Origin: Cupriavidus necator
GTDB lineage: Bacteria > Pseudomonadota > Gammaproteobacteria > Burkholderiales > Burkholderiaceae
NCBI RefSeq assembly: GCF_016127575.1
Contig: NZ_CP066018.1
Coordinates: 3,450,001-3,482,000 of the forward strand
Direction: 5' to 3'
DNA: 32,000 nt
Below the pieces are notes generated by a model that had not been told where the DNA came from, did no database searches, and saw only the letters and a list, made by a program, of their open reading frames with translations. Made by a program: the position numbers and the translations under genes. Positions 5,360-23,378 of this stretch are shown in pieces; the stretch's first letter is position 1; every line of letters begins with the position of its first letter.

Positions 5360-6502
5360 TCAGCGGGGTGCGACCGTCAGCGTCACAGGTCCGCCGAAGT
5401 GGAAGGTCCGGGGTCTTCTCGGCCGGATGGTGCGCACGCCGCGGCCGATGCCTGTGGGGCGGGCCATCGGCCCAGGGGGAGCGGGTTGCGCCAGGCGATC
5501 GAGCATGCGGGGATTGGCGACGACGCGGCGCGCGGCCTGGGGCAGCCCACGGCGCAGCGCCCGCGCGGCCTGGTTCGGCGGTTGCTGGCGTTGGCGTGCG
5601 ACGCGGGTGGCGGCGCGCGCCAGCGGTGCCAGGGCGCGTGTGGCCCCGGGTCCGCCTGCGCGCGCCAGTTCGCGTGCCGCGCTGGCGACGCCGCGCACGA
5701 GTTGCCGCCGGCCCGCGGCCGATAGTTGCGCCACATTTGACAGGCCGAGTCCGCGCGCGGCGGCTCGCGTGGCGAGCGCCACCGCTGCGGGCAGGGCCTC
5801 GTCGATGCCGTCGTTGGCATAGAGATCGATCATCGCGTCCATGCCCTGGCTCGCGCTGGCCTGCGAGGCGAGCAGTTGGCTGATCTGCGCGAGCATGTCC
5901 TGAGTGCCGCCGCCAAGGGTGCCGAGGGCGCCCGCCTGCCGGCGCGCCTGGCGCGCCGCGTGGCTGACGTCCCCGGCAAGGCGGCCAGCGGTTTGCAGGC
6001 CGCGCGCAAGGTTCGGCGCGCCCAGCATGCGCGCAAGGGCGGCCGCCGCGTTGGCGGTGGGGGAAGCAGCCTGCGCCACCCGGCCCACCTGTCCCGCCAC
6101 GCGGCCCGCCCTTCGTGCGACGCCCTGCATGCGTCCGGCCTGGCGGCTTATCACCCCGGCCGCGCGGCCGAGGCCGCCCAGCAGGCGGCCGAGAAATTCG
6201 TCGTCGTCGGCGGCGTCGAGGCCGTCGGCTACTTCTTCCTCGAAGGCGTTCCATACGGCCATCTGGTCGATGTGGTCGCCGATGTCGGTGTCTTGCGCGG
6301 CCGCCATATCGGCCGAATCTGTCTCGTCCGTGAAAGCATCGTCGCCCCCGTCCTCGTCAAACGGGGACGCGGTCCGCGCCAAGCCCGATTGCAGCGCGGC
6401 ATGATCGGCGGCGTCGTCGGCCGTGTCGCCGTAGTCCGTGCTACTGGCGTATTCGTCCAAACTGAGGTCTTCCATCAGGTCATTGTCGAATTGGTCGCTC
6501 AT
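5360..6502 (-). CDS. lysine-free charge-bipolar protein B, 380 aa, paralog of protein A; first gene of the operon
   Basis: ATG at 6502-6500 with GGAGG upstream. About 34 D/E and one Arg in residues 1-102 (hand count), then an Arg/Ala/Gly/Gln-rich region with heptad-like units (ARRAGRV AGQVGRV). No Lys in 380 aa. Ends ...RPRTFHFGGPVTLTVAPR. Confidence 0.65.
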   Translation of the reverse strand: MSDQFDNDLMEDLSLDEYASSTDYGDTADDAADHAALQSGLARTASPFDEDGGDDAFTDETDSADMAAAQDTDIGDHIDQMAVWNAFEEEVADGLDAADDDEFLGRLLGGLGRAAGVISRQAGRMQGVARRAGRVAGQVGRVAQAASPTANAAAALARMLGAPNLARGLQTAGRLAGDVSHAARQARRQAGALGTLGGGTQDMLAQISQLLASQASASQGMDAMIDLYANDGIDEALPAAVALATRAAARGLGLSNVAQLSAAGRRQLVRGVASAARELARAGGPGATRALAPLARAATRVARQRQQPPNQAARALRRGLPQAARRVVANPRMLDRLAQPAPPGPMARPTGIGRGVRTIRPRRPRTFHFGGPVTLTVAPR

Positions 6503-6956
6503 CGCATGCCTCCACGCGGCCGTGTGTCATGCCGCTGTCATGGCCACTCTAGATGCGGCGAGGTGCCCGCCGCATCGCCCGATGCCTCTGGCACGGCGGG
6601 ATTCGCGCGACCGGCCGGGCGCGACAGGACCGGCGCATCGGGGTACGGCACAACGGGCCCGCAAGGCGGGGCGTGCCGCCTTGCCGTAGCCGGAATGGGG
6701 TAGCCTGCTTGCGCTCTCGCTTTTTCCTTGCAAAGTCACCGGCCATATGCCAAAACAAAGAAGTTTCGAGCGGCCTGTGTCAGGGAAAAGTGCAGCGGGG
6801 GCACTGCAGCCTGACTCAGGGGAACGCAGCTTGTCAGCGCGCACGGATACGAATGCGGACTCGAAGCCGGCAGTTGAGCTGTGCCGTCATGCGGGCATCC
6901 GGCGTGCCGTTCGCTCGTCGTCGTGTTGCCAGGCGGAACGACAAGAAGGAAAAACC
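6503..6956. promoter_or_regulatory. 454-bp divergent intergenic control region between the unknown operon and the LuxR-type gene
   Basis: No convincing ORF. Contains the only AT-richer patches in this part of the window (about 6715-6765). Both flanking genes start here and point outward. Promoters are not mapped; this is positional inference only. Confidence 0.4.
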
Positions 6957-7493
6957 ATGCTTCACAGATTCCGCCGGGGGGCGCTGCTGGCACCGTACAG
7001 CGCATTAGGGGATTCGCCCACGGCCGGGTACGGGGCGGCGGCAATCCGGTCGGGCAGTTGGGGGAGAGAGGTCTGCGAGGTCGAACTGGGCGGCCGGCGA
7101 TGTCGGTTGCTGCAGGTAGGCGGCCTGCGTGCGCCACGCGGGGGGGCGTACGGGGAAGGCGAGATTACCCAGTTCGAGTTCGAGGGGAACTATTACGCCC
7201 TGATCGCTGATCCGGTGGCCGTGCCGGCGGCCGCGCCGCTGCCGGCCGGCGAGCCGCGTCCCGCCGTCCCCGATGTGCGAAGCGTGTTGACCGTGCGCGA
7301 ACTGCAGATCGTGCAACTCGTCTGCATGGGCTATTTGACTAAGCAGATCGCGGGCCGGCTTCATATCAGCGAATTTACCGTCCGCTCGTATCTCAAGACG
7401 ATCTACTGCAAACTCGGTGTCCGATCGCGCGCGGCGATGGTGTTCTGCTATATGCAGGCATGCGCTGGAGGCGCGGACGGCGCCCAAACCTGA
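6957..7493 (+). CDS. LuxR/GerE-family helix-turn-helix transcriptional regulator, 178 aa, with unrecognised N-terminal domain
   Basis: C-terminus LTVRELQIVQLVCMGYLTKQIAGRLHISEFTVRSYLKTIYCKLGVRSRAAMV is a classic GerE/LuxR HTH. I chose the ATG at 6957 (AGGA about 8 nt upstream) rather than the track start at 6747, whose extra 70 residues look like non-coding read-through. Confidence 0.8.
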   Translation: MLHRFRRGALLAPYSALGDSPTAGYGAAAIRSGSWGREVCEVELGGRRCRLLQVGGLRAPRGGAYGEGEITQFEFEGNYYALIADPVAVPAAAPLPAGEPRPAVPDVRSVLTVRELQIVQLVCMGYLTKQIAGRLHISEFTVRSYLKTIYCKLGVRSRAAMVFCYMQACAGGADGAQT

Positions 7494-7572
7494 CAGCGGT
7501 CCGGTATCGGCTAACCGGAAGGAACGACACGATTTTTCAGGCAGACATCGACGGGTGCACGAAAGACTGCAT

Positions 7573-9441
7573 TCACAGGAACCCGATCGAGAACCAAGGC
7601 ACCAGTGTCAGCAGCAGCAAAGCCACCAGCAGCGCCGCCATGTGCGGCCAGACCCGCGGCATGGCCACGTCAGGCGAGACCCGCCCGATGGCGCAAGCCG
7701 CGTAGAAGCCGACGCCGAACGGTGGCGCAAACAGGCCCAGGCCCATGGCGAAGATCACCACCATGGCGTAGTGGACTTCATGCACGCCGACGATCTTTGC
7801 GATCGGGAACAGAAGCGGGCCGAACAGCACGATGGCCGGGATGCCTTCAAGCAGGCTGCCGAGCAGGACGAATGCCAGCGCCGACACCAGCAGGAATCCG
7901 GTCTTGCCGCCCGGCACGGCGGACATGATCTTCACCAGGTCGCCGGCGAAGCCCGATTGCGTCAGCGCCCACGCCATTGTGGTGGCGCAGCCGACGATCA
8001 GCAGGATCGCGCCGGACAGCGCAGCGGTATCGACCAGCATCGGGTAGATGCTGCGCCAGTGGAAGCGCCGGTAGACGAAGATGCCGGCGAGCACTGCGTA
8101 GAAGATGCCGATGGTGGACACTTCGGTCGCGGTGGCCACGCCTTCCACTACCGCGGTGCGGATGATCACGGGCAAGGCCAGGGCCGGCAGGGCCACCAGC
8201 AGCGATTTCACGATCACGGCGCGCGTAGGGCGTACCACCGTGCTCATGTCTTCCTTGCGCGTCTGGAACCAGCCTACGCAGGCCATCATGACCAGGCCCA
8301 CGGCCGCAGGCATCAGGCCGCCGATGAAGAGCGAGGTGATCGACACACCGGTGACCGATCCCACCGTGATCAGCACGATGCTGGGCGGGATCGTTTCGGA
8401 CATCGCGCCGGACGCCGACAACAATCCGATCAGGTCACCGTCCCTGGCGCCGCGCTGCTTCATTTCCGGGAACAGCGCGGGCGCGACCGCTGCCATGTCG
8501 GCTGCCTTTGCGCCGGAGATGCCGGACACGATATACATCGCGCCGAGCAGCACGTACTGCAGGCCGCCGCGCACATGCCCGATCAGGTTGGCGAGGAAAC
8601 TGATCATGGCGCGCGCCAGTCCGGTCATCTCGATCAGCGCGCCCAGGAAGACAAAGAGCGGCACGGCGAGCAGGATCAGGTGCGACATGCCTTCCTGCAT
8701 GCGGTTCGGGACGATCGACAGCGGGGTCGTGGTGGTGAAGGCCAGGTAGCACATGGTGGCCAGGCCGAAGGCAAAGGCGATCGGCACGCCAATGGCGACG
8801 CATACCACCAGCACCAGCAGGAAGAAGATCACCAGGTTGATGTTGCCGAGTTCTGCCAGCACCGGGGACAAGGCCCACAAGATTGCCCCGATTACGCCCA
8901 CCGCCACGCCGCTGACGAGAACCCGTTTACAGTCGGCCTGCGCGACCAGCCGGATGACGGCCGTCGCCAGCATCAGCAGCGCGCCGGCGAGCACCGCCGC
9001 GGAGCGATAGCCCTCGCTGATCTCCAGCGTTGGCGACGAGACTTCGATGTGTTCACTCAGGTGCTCGTAGGCCGGCCAGACCAGCATCAGCAGGAACGCC
9101 ACCACCAGCCACATGCCAAAGGCATCGAGCCACGCGCGCCTGCCCGGCGCCAGGTCCTTGATGAAGGTGGTCAGTTGCATATGCGCGCTGCGCTGCAGCG
9201 CAATGATGGCGCCCAGCATGGCCAGCCAGAGGAACAGGATGCTGGCCAGTTCATCGGTCCAGGGGATCGGCGCATGCAGGACATAGCGCGCGAAGGCGCC
9301 ACCGCCCAGGATGGCGATCTCGGCAAGCACGATCAGCGCGGCCGGAATCTCCACGGCCCAGCGCATGGCGCGGCCCCACACGGCAAGGGCGGCGCCTGGT
9401 TCCTGCGGTGCGCCAGCGAAGGTTTCGGCAGTGTGCTCCAT
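7573..9441 (-). CDS. TRAP transporter fused permease (DctQ-like small plus DctM-like large subunit), 622 aa
   Basis: Highly hydrophobic multi-span sequence with DctM-type blocks (ISGISGAKAADMAAVAPALFPEMKQRG, LLEGIPAIVLFGPLLFPIA). Start set at ATG 9441-9439 (MEHTAETF..., GGAG upstream). The track ORF runs on to 10074, but that part overlaps the upstream binding-protein gene. Confidence 0.9.
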   Translation of the reverse strand: MEHTAETFAGAPQEPGAALAVWGRAMRWAVEIPAALIVLAEIAILGGGAFARYVLHAPIPWTDELASILFLWLAMLGAIIALQRSAHMQLTTFIKDLAPGRRAWLDAFGMWLVVAFLLMLVWPAYEHLSEHIEVSSPTLEISEGYRSAAVLAGALLMLATAVIRLVAQADCKRVLVSGVAVGVIGAILWALSPVLAELGNINLVIFFLLVLVVCVAIGVPIAFAFGLATMCYLAFTTTTPLSIVPNRMQEGMSHLILLAVPLFVFLGALIEMTGLARAMISFLANLIGHVRGGLQYVLLGAMYIVSGISGAKAADMAAVAPALFPEMKQRGARDGDLIGLLSASGAMSETIPPSIVLITVGSVTGVSITSLFIGGLMPAAVGLVMMACVGWFQTRKEDMSTVVRPTRAVIVKSLLVALPALALPVIIRTAVVEGVATATEVSTIGIFYAVLAGIFVYRRFHWRSIYPMLVDTAALSGAILLIVGCATTMAWALTQSGFAGDLVKIMSAVPGGKTGFLLVSALAFVLLGSLLEGIPAIVLFGPLLFPIAKIVGVHEVHYAMVVIFAMGLGLFAPPFGVGFYAACAIGRVSPDVAMPRVWPHMAALLVALLLLTLVPWFSIGFL

Positions 9442-14222: not shown

Positions 14223-15257
14223 ATGCTTAGCATTGTTGTCGAAGAACCCAACAGCATGGCCGTATGCGAGCGGCCAATGCCGGAGCCCGCTGCCGGCGAG
14301 GTGCGCGTACGCGTGCGCTATGCCGGCATCTGCGGTTCCGACCTGCATATCTTCCGCGGTCACAATCCGTTCGTGGCGTATCCGCGCGTCATCGGCCACG
14401 AGTTCGTCGGCACCATCGATGCCGTGGGTGCCGGGGTGGATGCGTCGCGCATCGGCCAGCGCGTGGTGGCGGATCCGGTCATCAGTTGCGGACAATGCCA
14501 CGCATGCCGGATCGGCCGCCAGAACGTGTGCAGCCGGCTCCAGGTGATCGGGGTGCATCGCGACGGAGGCTTCAGCGAGTACGCCTGCGTGCCGGCCGGC
14601 AATGCCTATGTGATTCCGGACGGCATGCCCGAAGCCAGCGCTTCGGTGATCGAGCCGTTTGCCGTGGCTGCCAATGTCACGCACCGCACCGGCGTGCTTG
14701 CGCAGGATGTGGCATTGATCTATGGCGCGGGGCCGGTCGGGCTCAACCTGATGCAGGTACTCAAGCGCGTCCATGGCATCCGCGCCTTCATCACGGATCA
14801 CCTCGACGAGCGCCTGGCGCTGGCGCGGCAATGCGGTGCGGGAGAGGACGAAGTCATCAACACCGCGCGCGAGCCCCTCGAACAGGCGCTGGCGGCGCGA
14901 GGCGTGGAAGGCGGTCCGACACTGATCTTCGATGCCGTATGCCATCCGGCCATCCTGGAGGAGGCCGTGAGCATTGCGGCACCGGCCGGGCGTATCGGGT
15001 TATTGGGCTTTTCACCGACGCCATCGGCGATCCCGCAGCAGGAACTCACCAGGAAGGAATTGACGCTGTATGCCTCGCGGCTTAACTGCGCGATGTTCCC
15101 GACGGTGATTGACTGGATCGCGAAAGGCCTGGTCAATCCCGGGAAAATTGTCACGCACCACGTCGATTTTCGCGATGTTGCCGGCGCGTTTGCACTGGCC
15201 GAGGGCAATCCGGGCAAATGCTGCAAGGTGCTGCTTGACTTTGGCCATGGTGGCTGA
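14223..15257 (+). CDS. rspB: zinc-dependent MDR dehydrogenase, RspB-like (possible L-gulonate/L-idonate 5-dehydrogenase), 344 aa
   Basis: AGEVRVRVRYAGICGSDLHIFRGHNPFVAYPRVIGHEFVGTIDAVG and the C-terminal CCKVLLDF are near-collinear with E. coli RspB as I recall it. GGAG SD. Starts 12 nt after the ManD stop. Confidence 0.9.
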   Translation: MLSIVVEEPNSMAVCERPMPEPAAGEVRVRVRYAGICGSDLHIFRGHNPFVAYPRVIGHEFVGTIDAVGAGVDASRIGQRVVADPVISCGQCHACRIGRQNVCSRLQVIGVHRDGGFSEYACVPAGNAYVIPDGMPEASASVIEPFAVAANVTHRTGVLAQDVALIYGAGPVGLNLMQVLKRVHGIRAFITDHLDERLALARQCGAGEDEVINTAREPLEQALAARGVEGGPTLIFDAVCHPAILEEAVSIAAPAGRIGLLGFSPTPSAIPQQELTRKELTLYASRLNCAMFPTVIDWIAKGLVNPGKIVTHHVDFRDVAGAFALAEGNPGKCCKVLLDFGHGG

Positions 15258-15592
15258 CATGGCGGATTTCGGGCTCATCGGGCTTCCTCACGCAGGTGAG
15301 TTGCCGGGCGTACGGCGCAGCTTGCATAACCTGGCCCAGCGCTCGGCCGCCAAGCGGCAGGCGGATCGTCGCGAGCTGGAACAGACGTTGGCGCGGCTGA
15401 CAGGGCGGGGTGTCTGAAGCGTCGACGACCCTTGCGTAATCAGCAGGTGGCGCTTGACGCGCATTCTCTCTTCGTTCACCTTATGTCCCCGGCAGGGCCG
15501 GCGTCCCATTGCGGCGCCAGGCTTTGTGCGGCGATCGCGCCAGCGCAGCCCGCGGCCGAACAACAAATGGTGACCAAAGGGAGACCATCGCA

Positions 15593-19170: not shown

Positions 19171-19211
19171 TACCCGGATGATATTGACATCGTATTTTAT
19201 CCGGGTAATAT
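19171..19211 (+). promoter_or_regulatory. sigma70-like promoter (TTGACA 19184-19189, 16-nt spacer, TAATAT 19206-19211) embedded in a 9-bp perfect inverted repeat (TACCCGGAT 19171-19179 / ATCCGGGTA 19199-19207)
   Basis: Read directly in the AT-rich 81-bp gap between the ABC-F stop and the DUF2239 start. The -10 element lies about 29 nt upstream of the ATG at 19240. Confidence 0.45.
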
Positions 19212-19239
19212 TCGGAAATCGTCTCCCAGGGGCATCCGC

Positions 19240-19860
19240 ATGACCAACGCAACGCTTCACAGCTACACCACCTTCGACGGCCACCGGCGTATCGCCACGG
19301 GCCCGCTGCAAGCCAATGCGCTGGCGCTCAAGCGTGCGCTGGAAGCCGGCGCGGGCGGACCCGTGCTGGTTTTCGACGACGGCACCGGGCGCTCGATCGA
19401 CCTGGATACGAGCGGGACGGAGGCCGCCGTACTTGAGCGCACGGCAGAGCGCGCCGCGCAGCTCGAAGCCGTGCGGCAGCCCGCCGGCGACAACGACGAA
19501 GCAGCGGACGTGGCCGAGCCCCGGGGCCGCGGGCGCCCGAAGCTTGGCGTGGTGTCGCGCGAGGTGACGCTGCTGCCGCGCCATTGGCAATGGCTGGCCG
19601 CCCAGCCAGGCGGGGCATCGGTGGCCCTGCGCAAGCTGGTCGAGCAGGCGCGCCGGGACCACGCGGACAAGGACCGCAGCCGCCGCGCCAGCGAACGGGC
19701 CTACCACTTCATGGTGGCGATGGCGGGAGATTTGCCCGGCTTCGAGGAAGCCACGCGGGCCTTGTTCGCGGGCGATGTGGCGGGCTTTGCGCAGCGGCTC
19801 GAGGCATGGCCGGCGGATATCCGCGAACACGCGATGCGCCTTGCGGACAGCAACGCCTGA
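19240..19860 (+). CDS. DUF2239-family protein, 206 aa
   Basis: The block RGRGRPKLGVVSREVTLLPRHWQWL and the overall length match what I remember of DUF2239. Family assignment is from memory only. Confidence 0.65.
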   Translation: MTNATLHSYTTFDGHRRIATGPLQANALALKRALEAGAGGPVLVFDDGTGRSIDLDTSGTEAAVLERTAERAAQLEAVRQPAGDNDEAADVAEPRGRGRPKLGVVSREVTLLPRHWQWLAAQPGGASVALRKLVEQARRDHADKDRSRRASERAYHFMVAMAGDLPGFEEATRALFAGDVAGFAQRLEAWPADIREHAMRLADSNA

Positions 19861-19878
19861 ACGGCTCCGCGGGCCTGG

Positions 19879-20295
19879 TCAGATGCCGCCCAGCAGGTCA
19901 TGCGCATCCACGATCGCATAGGCGATCTCGGGATGCTCTTCCATGCTGCGGCGGATGGCGGCTGGGATCGACTGGCGGATCTTGCGGCACAGGCCGGGCT
20001 GCTCCTGCACCTGGATGCTGATGCCGCGCACCGTGCGCACGCCGCGCGCGCTGGGGGTAATGGTGAGCACGATGCCCAGCTGGGTCTGCATCAGGCTTTC
20101 CATGCGCTGCAATTCAGCCAGGCTGGTCAGGCGCTCAAGCCGTTCGACCAGCCGCTTTTCTTCGGCCCGGGTGAGCCGCAGCACGCGCAGGTCGGCGTTG
20201 GGGTCACTCAGCAAGGCTTCGCGCCCGCAGATACAGGCGCCGGGCGGGCATTCCGTGCGAAGAGGGAACGGCGCGTTCATGTGGGGCGCGGCCAC
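19879..20295 (-). CDS. hypothetical protein, 133-138 aa
   Basis: The track ORF starts at GTG 20295; an alternative ATG lies at 20280. Protein-like composition (…LTRAEEKRLVERLERLTSLAELQRMESLMQTQLGIV…). No SD seen and no family recognised. Confidence 0.5.
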   Translation of the reverse strand: MAAPHMNAPFPLRTECPPGACICGREALLSDPNADLRVLRLTRAEEKRLVERLERLTSLAELQRMESLMQTQLGIVLTITPSARGVRTVRGISIQVQEQPGLCRKIRQSIPAAIRRSMEEHPEIAYAIVDAHDLLGGI

Positions 20296-20434
20296 AAGGC
20301 CGCAAGATAGCGGGGACGATGACCGGATATGTTAATTCAGGTTGCCGGTCGCCGGTTGCCCGTTGCGGGCACGCCATCTTTCCCGCAGGCCCTCAGGTCT
20401 TCCCTCTGGCAATGTCTGGTTGCGCGGGCATGGT

Positions 20435-20890
20435 TCAGTCCAGCTGCTCGATATGGGCCGACGTAATCGGGGCACGCCACTTGTCGGTCTCGGCATCGAT
20501 CAGCTGCCGGAGCTGCGCGGGCGAGCCGCCGGCAGGCTCGGCGCCCAGCGCGGCCAGGCCCTTGCGCACGTCCGGCGCCTGCAGCGCAGCTTGCAGCGCG
20601 GCGTTGATCCTGTCGATCACCGGCGCCGGCGTGCCGCGCGGCGCGACCACGCCGCCCCAGGCCACGGTCTCGTAGCCCTTCAGCCCGGACTCGTCGAGCG
20701 TCGGCACCTCGGGCAGCAGCGCAAGGCGTTTCAGGCTGCTGACGGCCAGCGGCCGCACCTTGCCGCCGCGGATCAGCGGCATGGCCTCGGAGGTATTGCT
20801 GAACATGAAGTCGAGCCGGCCGCCCATCAGGTCCTGCAGCGCGGCGGGGCCGCCGTTGTACGGGATAAAGGCGACATCAGTGGTGCCGGA
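20435..20890 (-). pseudogene. C-terminal ~150 codons of a Bug/TctC-family periplasmic binding protein; 5' half missing
   Basis: TDVAFIPYNGGPAALQDLMGGRLDFMFSNTSEAMPLIRGGKVRPLAVSSLKRLALLPEVPTLDESGLKGYETVAWGGVVAPRGTP...ETDKWRAPI is the conserved C-terminal half of Bug proteins (full length about 320 aa). Similarity stops abruptly near 20885, where the LysR remnant begins on the other strand. The 30 upstream residues of the track ORF look like noise. Confidence 0.7.
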
Positions 20891-21631
20891 CGCATGCTGC
20901 ATGTGTCGCAGCCCGCGGTCAACCGGGTGCTGGCGCTGACCGAAAGCCGGCTCGGCTACCCCTTGTTCGAGCGCGCGCGGCAAGCTGTTGCCGACGCCGG
21001 AAGGGCGGCGCCTGTTTGCCGAGGTCGAGCAGGTCTATAGCGGCGTACAGCGCGTCAACGACCTGGCTGCGGCGTGCCCACGCGCGTCGACTACCGCAGC
21101 GTCACCTTCGACGAACTGGTCGGCATTTTCCTGAGCGGTCGGGCCGATGTCGGCGTGTCGATGGTGCCGGCGGGGCATCCGACGCTGTCGTCCACGCTGC
21201 TCGGGCGCCAGCCGATGCTGTGCGTGTTGCCGCCGGACCATCCGCTCGCGGGCCGCGAGGTGGTGACGCCGGAGGATGTTGCCGGCAGCGCGTGGATCGG
21301 CTATCCGCCCGACACGCCGCTGGGCCGTGCGCTGGCCGGCTTCTTCGGCGACAGCGACAGCGGCGCCCCCGCCATCGAGGTGCATTCGCCGGTCACGGCA
21401 TGCGCCTTTGTGCAGCAGGGCCTGGGGCTGGCGCTGGTGGATGCGTGGAGCGTGACGCCAGCCATGCGCGCGGCGCTGGCGGTGCGGCCGGTGTTGCCCG
21501 CGGTCGGCCTGGAAATCTGCGCGACCCATTCCGGCCTGGCGCCGCTGCCATTGGCGGGGCGCCGCTTCCTGGCCTCGATCGGTAAAGTGCTACGCGACAT
21601 CCAGCCGCCTGCCGCGTGCGCGCAGGGGTAA
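20885..21631 (+). pseudogene. LysR-family regulator remnant: 5' truncated, one frameshift (about 20975-20982), one internal deletion (about 21068-21076)
   Basis: LHVSQPAVNRVLALTESRLGYPLFERAR (frame 2) continues as GKLLPTPEGRRLFAEVEQVYSGVQRVNDLAAA in another frame. It then jumps to VDYRSVTFDELVGIFLSGRADVGVSMVP... (track ORF 21074-21631, substrate-binding domain). About the first 20 HTH residues and about 35 residues of the linker/early effector domain are missing. Confidence 0.7.
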
Positions 21632-21732
21632 TCCGGCAGCAAATGCCGATCCGGTCTATGCTCGCGGCAGCGGTGCGGCCCGACGGCCCCCGACCACAGG
21701 AATTTCCAACCAAGGCCTGCACAGGAGACCCC

Positions 21733-22239
21733 ATGGCACTCTCGATGTACGAAGTCTCGATTCCCTTGTTCATCCGCGCGCTCGGCAATCTCGCCGCGAT
21801 CCTGGACAAGGGCGCGGCCCACGCCCAGGCGCAGGGCATGGACCCGGCCGACCTGATCCAGACCCGCCTGATCGCCGACATGGATGCGCTGCCGGCACAG
21901 GTGCAGCGCGCCAGCGACGCCGCCAAGGGCTGCGCCGCGCGGCTGGCAGGCATCGAGGTGCCTTCGTTCGCCGATACCGAAACCACCTTTGCCGAACTGC
22001 GGGACCGCATCGCCCGCACCATCGGGTTCCTGGAGCAGGTCACGCCTGAGCAGCTGGAAGGCAGCGAGCAGCGCGCGATCGAGCTGAAGCTGCGCCAGGG
22101 GCCGATGACATTCGACGGCAAGTCCTACCTGCTGGGTTTTGCGCTGCCCAACTTCTATTTTCACGTGACCACGGCCTATGACATCCTGCGCCACAAGGGC
22201 GTGCAGATTGGCAAGCGCGACTACCTGGGGCTGAAGTAA
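21733..22239 (+). CDS. DUF1993-family protein, 168 aa
   Basis: MALSMYEVSIPLFIRALGNLAAILDKGAAHA...GFALPNFYFHVTTAYDILRHKGVQIGKRDYLG matches DUF1993 proteins as I recall them. ATG 21733 has AGGAGA 5 nt upstream, and the track ORF start at 21616 lies upstream of that SD. Confidence 0.8.
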   Translation: MALSMYEVSIPLFIRALGNLAAILDKGAAHAQAQGMDPADLIQTRLIADMDALPAQVQRASDAAKGCAARLAGIEVPSFADTETTFAELRDRIARTIGFLEQVTPEQLEGSEQRAIELKLRQGPMTFDGKSYLLGFALPNFYFHVTTAYDILRHKGVQIGKRDYLGLK

Positions 22240-22261
22240 GAAGCCGAGCGGGGCCAGTAGG

Positions 22262-22290
22262 AAAAAGCCGGGCGCGGATCCCGGCTTTTT
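22262..22290. terminator. rho-independent (bidirectional-looking) terminator after the DUF1993 gene
   Basis: AAAAAGCCGGG (22262-22272), 7-nt loop, CCCGGCTTTTT (22280-22290). GC stem flanked by an A-tract and a T-tract. Confidence 0.7.
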
Positions 22291-22322
22291 CATTGTCGAA
22301 CAGCAGCTTGGGCGGCAGCCGC

Positions 22323-22349
22323 CGGTCAGCGCGGTCAGCGCGGTCAGCA
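22323..22349. repeat. 3 x 9-bp tandem repeat (CGGTCAGCG CGGTCAGCG CGGTCAGCA) in non-coding DNA
   Basis: Read directly. Lies in the 450-bp gap upstream of queE. Confidence 0.6.
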
Positions 22350-22742
22350 CCGGGGCGCCGATGGCGGCCCTTTGCAGCAAAACCGGGTGATCTGCAGGAG
22401 ATATTTGCCGCGCGCCTGGCCGGCGGCCGGGACCGCATCCCGCCAGCCTCTAAGCGGAAACCCTGACCCCTCTGGTATACTTGCATTACGTCCGGACAGG
22501 CCGGACGCAGCCTGCGACAGGCCACAGGCGGTTCCTCCGGCAGTGCCCGGAGCCATGCACGGAAAACCCGGTGCACACCGCCCGCGCTGCCAGCCATGCG
22601 GCGCCGATCCGGGAGCCCGAGCCCAGATCCGTGATACTTGTTATCCGGCCTTTGCCCAATACCTGTTGAAACCCCGGCCAGCCCAAGGGCGGCCGAATGC
22701 CCGTTAACGGTCCCCAAACGGTCCCAGAGAGACCCCCCACGC

Positions 22743-23378
22743 ATGACTTACGCCGTCAAGGAAATCTTCTATACGCTGCAGGGCGAAGGCGCCAACGCCG
22801 GCCGCGCCGCGGTGTTCTGCCGCTTTGCCGGCTGCAACCTGTGGAGCGGCCGCGAAGAAGACCGCGCCAGCGCGGTGTGCCAGTTCTGCGATACGGATTT
22901 CGTCGGCACCGATGGCACGCGCGGCGGCAAGTACCGCACGGCCGAGGAACTGGCCGCAGTGGTCGCGTCGGAATGGCCGCAGGGCGCCGGCGGCCAGCCG
23001 CTGGTGGTCTGCACCGGGGGCGAGCCGCTGCTGCAACTGGACGCGCCGCTGATCGACGCGCTGCATGCGCAGGGCTTCGAGATTGCGATCGAAACCAACG
23101 GCACCATCGCCGTGCCGCCGGGCATCGACTGGGTCTGCGTCAGCCCCAAGATGGGCTCGGAACTGGTGGTCACGCGTGGTGACGAGCTCAAAGTCGTGAT
23201 CCCGCAGGAGGGCCAGGACTTTGCCGCATACGAGCAGCTTGATTTCCGCCATTTCCTGGTGCAGGCCATGGATGGCCCGCTGGCGAGGGAAAATACCGCC
23301 GCCGCGGTGGCGTTCTGCCAGCGCCATCCGCGCTGGCGGCTGTCGCTGCAGACTCACAAGCTGCTCGGCATCCGCTGA
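22743..23378 (+). CDS. queE: 7-carboxy-7-deazaguanine synthase (radical SAM), 211 aa
   Basis: MTYAVKEIFYTLQGEGANAGRAAVFCRFAGCNLWSG...CQFCDTDF...VCTGGEPLLQ is the QueE signature region. Followed by queD. Confidence 0.9.
   Translation: MTYAVKEIFYTLQGEGANAGRAAVFCRFAGCNLWSGREEDRASAVCQFCDTDFVGTDGTRGGKYRTAEELAAVVASEWPQGAGGQPLVVCTGGEPLLQLDAPLIDALHAQGFEIAIETNGTIAVPPGIDWVCVSPKMGSELVVTRGDELKVVIPQEGQDFAAYEQLDFRHFLVQAMDGPLARENTAAAVAFCQRHPRWRLSLQTHKLLGIR

Follow-up and report, generated by a model that had tools for sequence, protein, structure and literature searches.

Head-to-head remnants of a Bug/TctC gene and a LysR gene form a very probable deletion scar on chromosome 1 of Cupriavidus necator H16

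Results

Two gene fragments lying head to head on chromosome 1 of Cupriavidus necator H16 are, on comparison with intact relatives, very probably a non-functional deletion scar made of two pseudogene remnants. One is the C-terminal part of a Bug/TctC periplasmic binding-protein gene, on the minus strand, the other what is left of a gene for a LysR-type regulator, on the plus strand. Both lie in a stretch of 32,000 nucleotides, the window, whose positions are used throughout unless another sequence is named. The features of the locus are the following.

20356 to 20434, minus strand: scrap of a D-aminoacylase gene; the start codon (CAT on the plus strand at 20429-20431) and a few codons are left.
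20435 to 20878, minus strand: Bug/TctC periplasmic binding-protein remnant, codons 180-326 of 326 and the stop codon TGA (20437-20435).
20877 to 20878: junction of a 799-bp deletion (7340-8138 in the intact locus L001), with 2-nt 'TC' microhomology.
20879 to 21631, plus strand: LysR remnant as a whole, starting at codon 47 and broken into three frame segments.
20879 to 20978, plus strand: LysR fragment 1, S47 to ~R80, second half of the winged helix-turn-helix (translation, HTH_1 match, alignment with the full-length LysR P0001).
20971 to 20979: GC dinucleotide tract short of one unit, reading GCGCGCGCG where intact genes have GCGCGCGCGCG; a -2 frameshift.
20979 to 21075, plus strand: LysR fragment 2, G81-A112, end of the helix-turn-helix and linker helix, in a second frame (translation, alignment with L001 8241-8337).
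21069 to 21075: junction of a 100-bp internal LysR deletion (L001 8338-8437), with one GCGGCGT copy left.
21076 to 21631, plus strand: LysR fragment 3, residues ~146-330 and stop, most of the effector-binding domain (LysR_substrate match).
22243 to 22466: second scar, scraps of a divergent aldo/keto-reductase-MFS transporter / LysR module (blastn against L001, L044 and L042).

Two truncated genes

Bug proteins have ~325 residues, an identifiable signal sequence and a two-lobe Venus-flytrap fold, and Cupriavidus species carry more than 100 Bug genes, often adjoining regulators (PMC2864759). The minus-strand open reading frame 20435-20983 matches the Pfam family TctC (PF03401; TTT family, TC 2.A.80) at profile positions 124-270 of 274 only (E=4.7e-32). 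A full-length match would take in all ~274 positions and a protein of ~325 residues; the remnant offers 147 homologous codons. The matching part consists of the ~147 C-terminal residues of the frame (DVAFIPYNGGPAALQDL...HIEQLD). At the DNA level window 20437-20878 corresponds to L001 6898-7339 with 91% identity (blastn), and residues 180-326 of the L001 TctC protein are 90.5% identical to the remnant (tblastn). N-terminal of residue 180 the frame runs on as antisense LysR (MPRALEQGVAEPAFGQRQHPVDRGLRHMQHASGTT) and contains no hydrophobic signal peptide; the intact TctC ortholog begins MLRTLASGLALALAAITLPCAAA. Open reading frames of 155 or 182 aa are kept on the minus strand. What remains corresponds by homology to the C-terminal lobe of the family, yet with 179 N-terminal codons gone, and with them the signal sequence for periplasmic export, it is best classed as a pseudogene fragment and not as a member.

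The LysR remnant matches HTH_1 (PF00126) from profile position 19 of 60 (E=5.9e-11) and LysR_substrate (PF03466) at positions 38-206 of 209 (E=5.5e-26). The Pfam matches of both remnants are well beyond chance, and in NCBIfam the LysR pieces give LysR-family matches only, all of them sub-threshold. The first residue kept is S47 (SGAGRMLHV...); codons 1-46 of the ortholog, and with them half of the helix-turn-helix, are missing. The plus strand reads as LysR from 20879 (SGAGRMLHVSQPAVNRVLALTESRLGYPLFER), then from 20979 in another frame (GKLLPTPEGRRLFAEVEQVYSGVQRVNDLAAA); the third stretch is the 185-aa open reading frame 21074-21631, with a GTG start at 21074, which lacks the first ~37 LysR_substrate profile positions. 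A helix-turn-helix, linker and effector domain of ~300 aa in one frame can therefore not be read, since a 2-nt loss and the 100-bp deletion break the frame twice. Relative to working LysR-type regulators the remnant has also lost residues 113-145 and its operator/promoter region. Its DNA is 94-96% identical to the intact 330-aa gene of L001 (95.6% for fragment 3 against L001 8431-9605), and a homology search with the reconstructed LysR as query returned P0001, a 330-aa protein encoded at L001, which is 82% identical along the full query length.

The lesions, base by base

The boundaries of the lesions were taken from blastn against the intact L001 locus and from a three-way alignment of both intact flanks with the window. 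LysR homology begins at window 20877, which equals L001 8137. The original prediction, made from the sequence of the window, was of two truncated genes, Bug/TctC and LysR, fused head to head at about 20885; the partial Pfam matches and the blastn alignment bear out the fusion and place it at 20877/20878, ~7 nt further left, with S47 and not A49 as the first LysR residue. It also held that a divergent LysR/Bug pair had lost both 5' ends and the shared promoter region, and this stands as well: the intact pair is present in two loci, L001 and L005, and a contiguous block of 799 bp is absent from the window. The block comprises 537 nt of TctC (codons 1-179), the 124-nt intergenic region and 138 nt of LysR (codons 1-46), and 'TC' is the sole homology between its two ends. 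A single step would be the most parsimonious origin of the gap, no intermediate occurring among the limited sample of strains.

In intact genes a 100-bp segment is bounded by two copies of the 7-bp direct repeat GCGGCGT; its loss from the window removes LysR residues 113-145 (33 codons) and shifts the frame. An internal deletion of ~35 codons at 21068-21076 had been proposed; the deletion is real, but its 100 bp do not make up a whole number of codons. The frameshift proposed at 20975-20982 is likewise real, and is the loss of 2 nt in the tract at 20971-20979. A gap in the same protein position as the 100-bp deletion is seen in P0007, an Achromobacter-like LysR ortholog from a Logan contig, as an in-frame deletion of 25 aa (SGAGMLKIVASASFGQRLIPMALDR, compared with P0013). 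On the other side of the TctC remnant ~1.4-1.5 kb of the D-aminoacylase gene are missing, L001 5398-6897 being without counterpart in the window. The right-hand junction of this scar is the same in the window, in strain CP313 (L044) and in the H850 group (L036), with nested further losses in the alignment.

Microhomology, short direct repeats and the loss of a simple-repeat unit are textbook signatures of deletion and slippage in bacteria. All three are found here, as 2 nt of microhomology, a 7-bp repeat and a lost dinucleotide unit, and nothing in them differs in kind from known routes of pseudogene formation. The locus is an ordinary and well-understood kind of gene decay, and involves no new biological principle.

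The intact counterpart and the lost module

Related genomes do carry the intact LysR/Bug pair, as the original prediction anticipated, and the deletion end-points could thus be defined against L001. In L001 and L005 the gene order is p133 (minus strand), an amidohydrolase of 489 aa (minus), TctC of 326 aa (minus), a 124-bp spacer, LysR of 330 aa (plus) and DUF1993 (plus). The window has the same p133 and DUF1993 genes on either side of the remnants and is thus syntenic with the two intact loci; the sequence that it lacks completes the TctC and LysR frames exactly. Intact orthologs between the same flanks, with extra sequence that restores the frames, are what is expected if the window holds pseudogenes. 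L005 (CP158803.1) is titled Ralstonia pickettii strain RAL3, a species label that looks doubtful: over 5 kb the locus is 97% identical to the C. necator-like L001, and a protein named Cupriavidus necator shares 98% identity with its LysR.

Eight Achromobacter and Bordetella genomes carry the same module of D-aminoacylase, TctC and divergent LysR, with amino acid identities of 60-75%, from which it follows that the intact arrangement is the ancestral one and that of the window is derived. The amidohydrolase of L001 matches D-aminoacylase (N-acyl-D-amino-acid deacylase) of Alcaligenes faecalis DA1, PDB 1M7J, over its full length with E=6e-157. This is the enzyme gene that follows TctC in the intact loci, of which just ~80 nt of scraps (20356-20434) are left in the window. 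Given this match, the lost module probably served the uptake and use of N-acyl-D-amino acids.

The ancestral arrangement is a classic divergent pair of LysR-type regulator and target operon, with a T-N11-A-like dyad in the intact spacers. We find in the TctC/LysR spacer a motif conserved in Cupriavidus, Achromobacter and Bordetella, ATCGAAaAATGT...(C/T)ATAATC-N5-GTTATCG(A/G)T. It lies at ~7944-7976 in L001 and at the same position in L005, L007-L013, L019, L042 and L044, the rest of the spacer being unalignable between genera. From its conservation and T-N11-A-like form it is probably a LysR operator. A strict T-N11-A dyad scan of the Cupriavidus spacers returned no match at ≥4/5 complementary positions; the motif is conserved, and its dyad is imperfect in Cupriavidus. 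The 124-bp spacer with the ATAATC-N5-GTTATCG motif falls wholly inside the 799-bp deletion, which leaves the remnants with no promoter or operator of their own.

Parallel inactivation in other lineages

No fewer than five C. necator-group lineages carry an inactivated module, namely the H16 clade, the H850 group, A5-1, EM36 and DF5525; in L001 and L005 it is intact. Outside the H16 clade the lesions are the following.

H850 group: a 925-bp deletion (L001 7067-7991) and the same GC contraction as in the window.
A5-1 and L046: a ~1.6-kb deletion, from within the D-aminoacylase gene to LysR nt ~138-142.
EM36: a 3,168-bp deletion (5476-8643) and a 76-bp deletion.
DF5525: D-aminoacylase and LysR frameshifted, TctC intact.

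The 925-bp deletion of the H850 group arose independently, because it overlaps the H16 deletion and is not nested in it. The LysR-side ends of the A5-1-type (~1.6-kb) and H16-type (799-bp) deletions lie no more than 5 nt apart (L001 8137-8142, equal to window 20877-20882; L006 6000-6006), and their left ends 800 bp apart. No hairpin was found at this recurrent LysR end-point, the DNA of L001 8105-8175 folding no better than shuffled sequences (z=0.15). The coincidence may be due to chance, which by our own estimate would produce it in ~1% of cases for the pair and perhaps in 5-10% over all pairs compared, or to a local deletion hot spot. The GC tract, (GC)5 minus one unit, is contracted in the window, in the H850 group (L036 ~3980) and in A5-1 (L006 ~6090). 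Slippage homoplasy, by convergence in length or by re-expansion, would be the simplest reading of this three-lineage contraction, though recombination is evident at the locus.

A question that arises is whether so many losses are random. With at least five lineages carrying different lesions, two deletion ends no more than 5 nt apart and the GC contraction found three times, one might argue for non-random loss, adaptive or steered in parallel by mutational hot spots, or both, in place of neutral erosion. We regard such non-random loss as improbable.

Functional status of the remnants

Could the remnants be functional short genes, the 185-aa product acting as a ligand binder or dominant-negative partner and the 155-aa Bug C-lobe as a new small protein? 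Both frames are open and are deposited as CDSs, the 185-aa frame is unchanged in several H16-group strains, and dN/dS ratios relative to L001 do not reach 1 (TctC remnant 0.27, C-terminal part of LysR 0.25, from few substitutions, 18 and 11 of them non-synonymous). For the intact neighbours DUF1993 and p133 the corresponding values are 0.10 and 0.07. The contrast fits a partial relaxation of constraint, on small counts and with ratios still well below 1, and low ratios in the remnants would mostly reflect the time before decay, when each was a working gene. Against function also stands the lack of recognisable expression signals. A scan of 20200-21800 found no sigma-70-like promoter, no Shine-Dalgarno-like sequence can be read upstream of GTG 21074 or ATG 20902, and a terminator scan of 20200-21800 gave two weak terminator-like matches, at about chance level. 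At E≤0.1 no Rfam family matches in 19800-22800, and neither an RNA gene nor a riboswitch accounts for the region. The Bug fragment has antisense LysR for its N-terminus in place of a signal peptide and the LysR effector domain is incomplete; both remnants suffer further disruptive indels in close relatives, and the same parts are deleted outright in other lineages. Function as short genes is thus very unlikely, and the reading of the locus as two pseudogene remnants is retained.

The junctions in other strains

Mis-assembly and faulty base-calling can yield deletions at short repeats and altered dinucleotide tracts, and the 2-nt tract length is supported just by L033, which is possibly the same assembly as the window. 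That the junctions are artefacts of this sort, and that the real genome holds intact genes, is nonetheless scarcely credible. L033 (CP196472.1, a complete chromosome) agrees with the window at every position of a 6,558-bp stretch (100% identity). L034 and L035 are separate strains that differ from the window by 24-33 substitutions scattered over 6.5 kb (~0.3-0.5% divergence); both carry the 799-bp and the 100-bp junction. The exact 185-aa frame occurs in 134 blocks of a public collection, many of them independent read-set assemblies, and the exact 155-aa and 185-aa products occur in several NCBI records. Because the junctions recur in independent strains and assemblies, the deletions are not assembly artefacts; for the 799-bp and 100-bp deletions recurrence in distinct strains rules this out. 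The original prediction had itself raised an artefactual junction as a possible fault, along with intact frames in the same arrangement, and the orthologous regions show no such frames.

The converse history, in which the window keeps an ancestral short state and L001-like relatives gained DNA by insertion, has next to no probability. Large segments present in some strains and absent from others can reflect gain as well as loss, and the islands on the flanks (AbiE, AKR-MFS-LysR) do differ from strain to strain. Against such a history, Achromobacter and Bordetella have conserved the module in full, the pieces in the window are partial Pfam domains, and insertion is ruled out by the way in which the missing segments complete the frames (TctC codons 1-179, LysR 1-46 and 113-145).

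Order of events

Strain CP313 (L044) has intact TctC (323 aa) and LysR (334 aa) although it shares the D-aminoacylase scar, and for this reason the loss of the enzyme gene probably came first, leaving a receptor and a regulator without a job. In the multiple alignment L034 and L035 have the 100-bp deletion, and the H850 group, A5-1, L001 and L005 do not. The GC tract has its full length in L001, L005 and L034, and in L035 its full length with one substitution. Since L034 and L035 keep the full-length tract, the 2-nt loss is the youngest lesion, or else the tract fluctuates in length; judged from these close relatives the two deletions are probably older than the 2-nt frameshift, which would have come last. 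The order implied at the outset, a deletion followed by frameshift and internal deletion, is in this respect to be revised. Decay appears to be continuing: in L034 the TctC remnant has lost one more nucleotide, at window position 20853, and P0125, from another H16-like variant, has a 1-nt indel that re-joins the LysR frames across the 100-bp gap.

Local identities around the locus are mosaic. Within window 19768-22242 the LysR-DUF1993 part is ~95% identical to L001 and ~79-82% identical to CP313, and the p133 flank is 91.5% identical to CP313 and 86% identical to L001, which points to recombination between lineages of the C. necator group. Because of this mosaic the strain tree of the flanking genes, on which the order of events rests, is only partly usable, and it was relied on just for very close relatives (L034, L035) and for shared junctions. 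The locus is chromosomal, a megablast of 19200-22300 giving no match in a plasmid collection.

Discussion

Taken together, the comparison suggests the following course. The ancestor would have carried a small catabolic module in which a LysR regulator stood divergent from an operon of Bug/TctC and D-aminoacylase, across a 124-bp spacer with a conserved operator-like motif. Deletion of the D-aminoacylase gene presumably opened the decay. The 799-bp segment, whose loss is plain from the alignment, would then have gone, apparently in one event, at 2 nt of microhomology, and a 100-bp deletion between 7-bp direct repeats, also read from the alignment, put the LysR frame out of register. The GC dinucleotide tract, in which the loss of one unit is likewise directly read, would have been the last to change, to judge from the close relatives. 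Lacking a signal peptide, a complete DNA-binding domain, a recognisable promoter and a ribosome-binding site, the outcome could hardly give a working protein, and the sequence would now drift neutrally.

In the literature searched we found no prior description of the pseudogene pair or of the Bug/D-aminoacylase/LysR module. Gene callers and the deposited H16 annotation give both remnants as ordinary CDSs. In Cupriavidus necator ATCC 17699 / H16 the exact 155-aa product is CAJ93029.1, 'Extra-cytoplasmic solute receptor', and the exact 185-aa product is CAJ93028.1, 'Transcriptional regulator, LysR-family'; RefSeq-style names are also in use for sequences identical or nearly identical to these. 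It had been expected that annotation would report several short hypothetical ORFs, and separate short CDSs are indeed reported, under family names and not as hypothetical. The main value of the present analysis is therefore annotation hygiene in a biotechnological model organism: CAJ93029.1 and CAJ93028.1 should be flagged as pseudogene remnants and should leave the counts of Bug receptors and LysR regulators as well as regulatory and metabolic models. The comparison also provides a clean, datable decay series of one catabolic module across C. necator-group strains, which could mark strain relationships. A further prediction is that the D-aminoacylase route kept by strains such as RAL3 is missing from H16.

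The surroundings of the pair had been described as an otherwise intact region, and this description fails: besides the missing D-aminoacylase gene, the MFS/LysR module at 22243-22466 is reduced to scraps, and the tail of an AbiEii gene lies at 15229-15408. That tail (plus strand) corresponds to the final 60 codons of an AbiEii-like toxin gene (residues 252-311 of 313), with 72% amino acid identity to the intact AbiEii of L001; neither AbiEi nor the remainder of AbiEii was found in the window, and the tail is probably another remnant. The scraps of the MFS/LysR module form a second scar directly after DUF1993, where ~3 kb were lost in at least three pieces. They comprise a 5' piece of the MFS gene (22299-22366), an intergenic piece (22371-22407) and, from 22407, the last ~60 nt of the LysR gene of an aldo/keto reductase-MFS/LysR module that is intact in L001, L005, L042, L044 and L046. 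L034 and L035 have a further 9-bp deletion in this scar, at 22323-22331. In the H850 group (L036-L041) the place of the module downstream of DUF1993 is taken by a gene for an ECF sigma factor together with several unannotated ORFs; across the C. necator group the interval between DUF1993 and queE is a site of variation.
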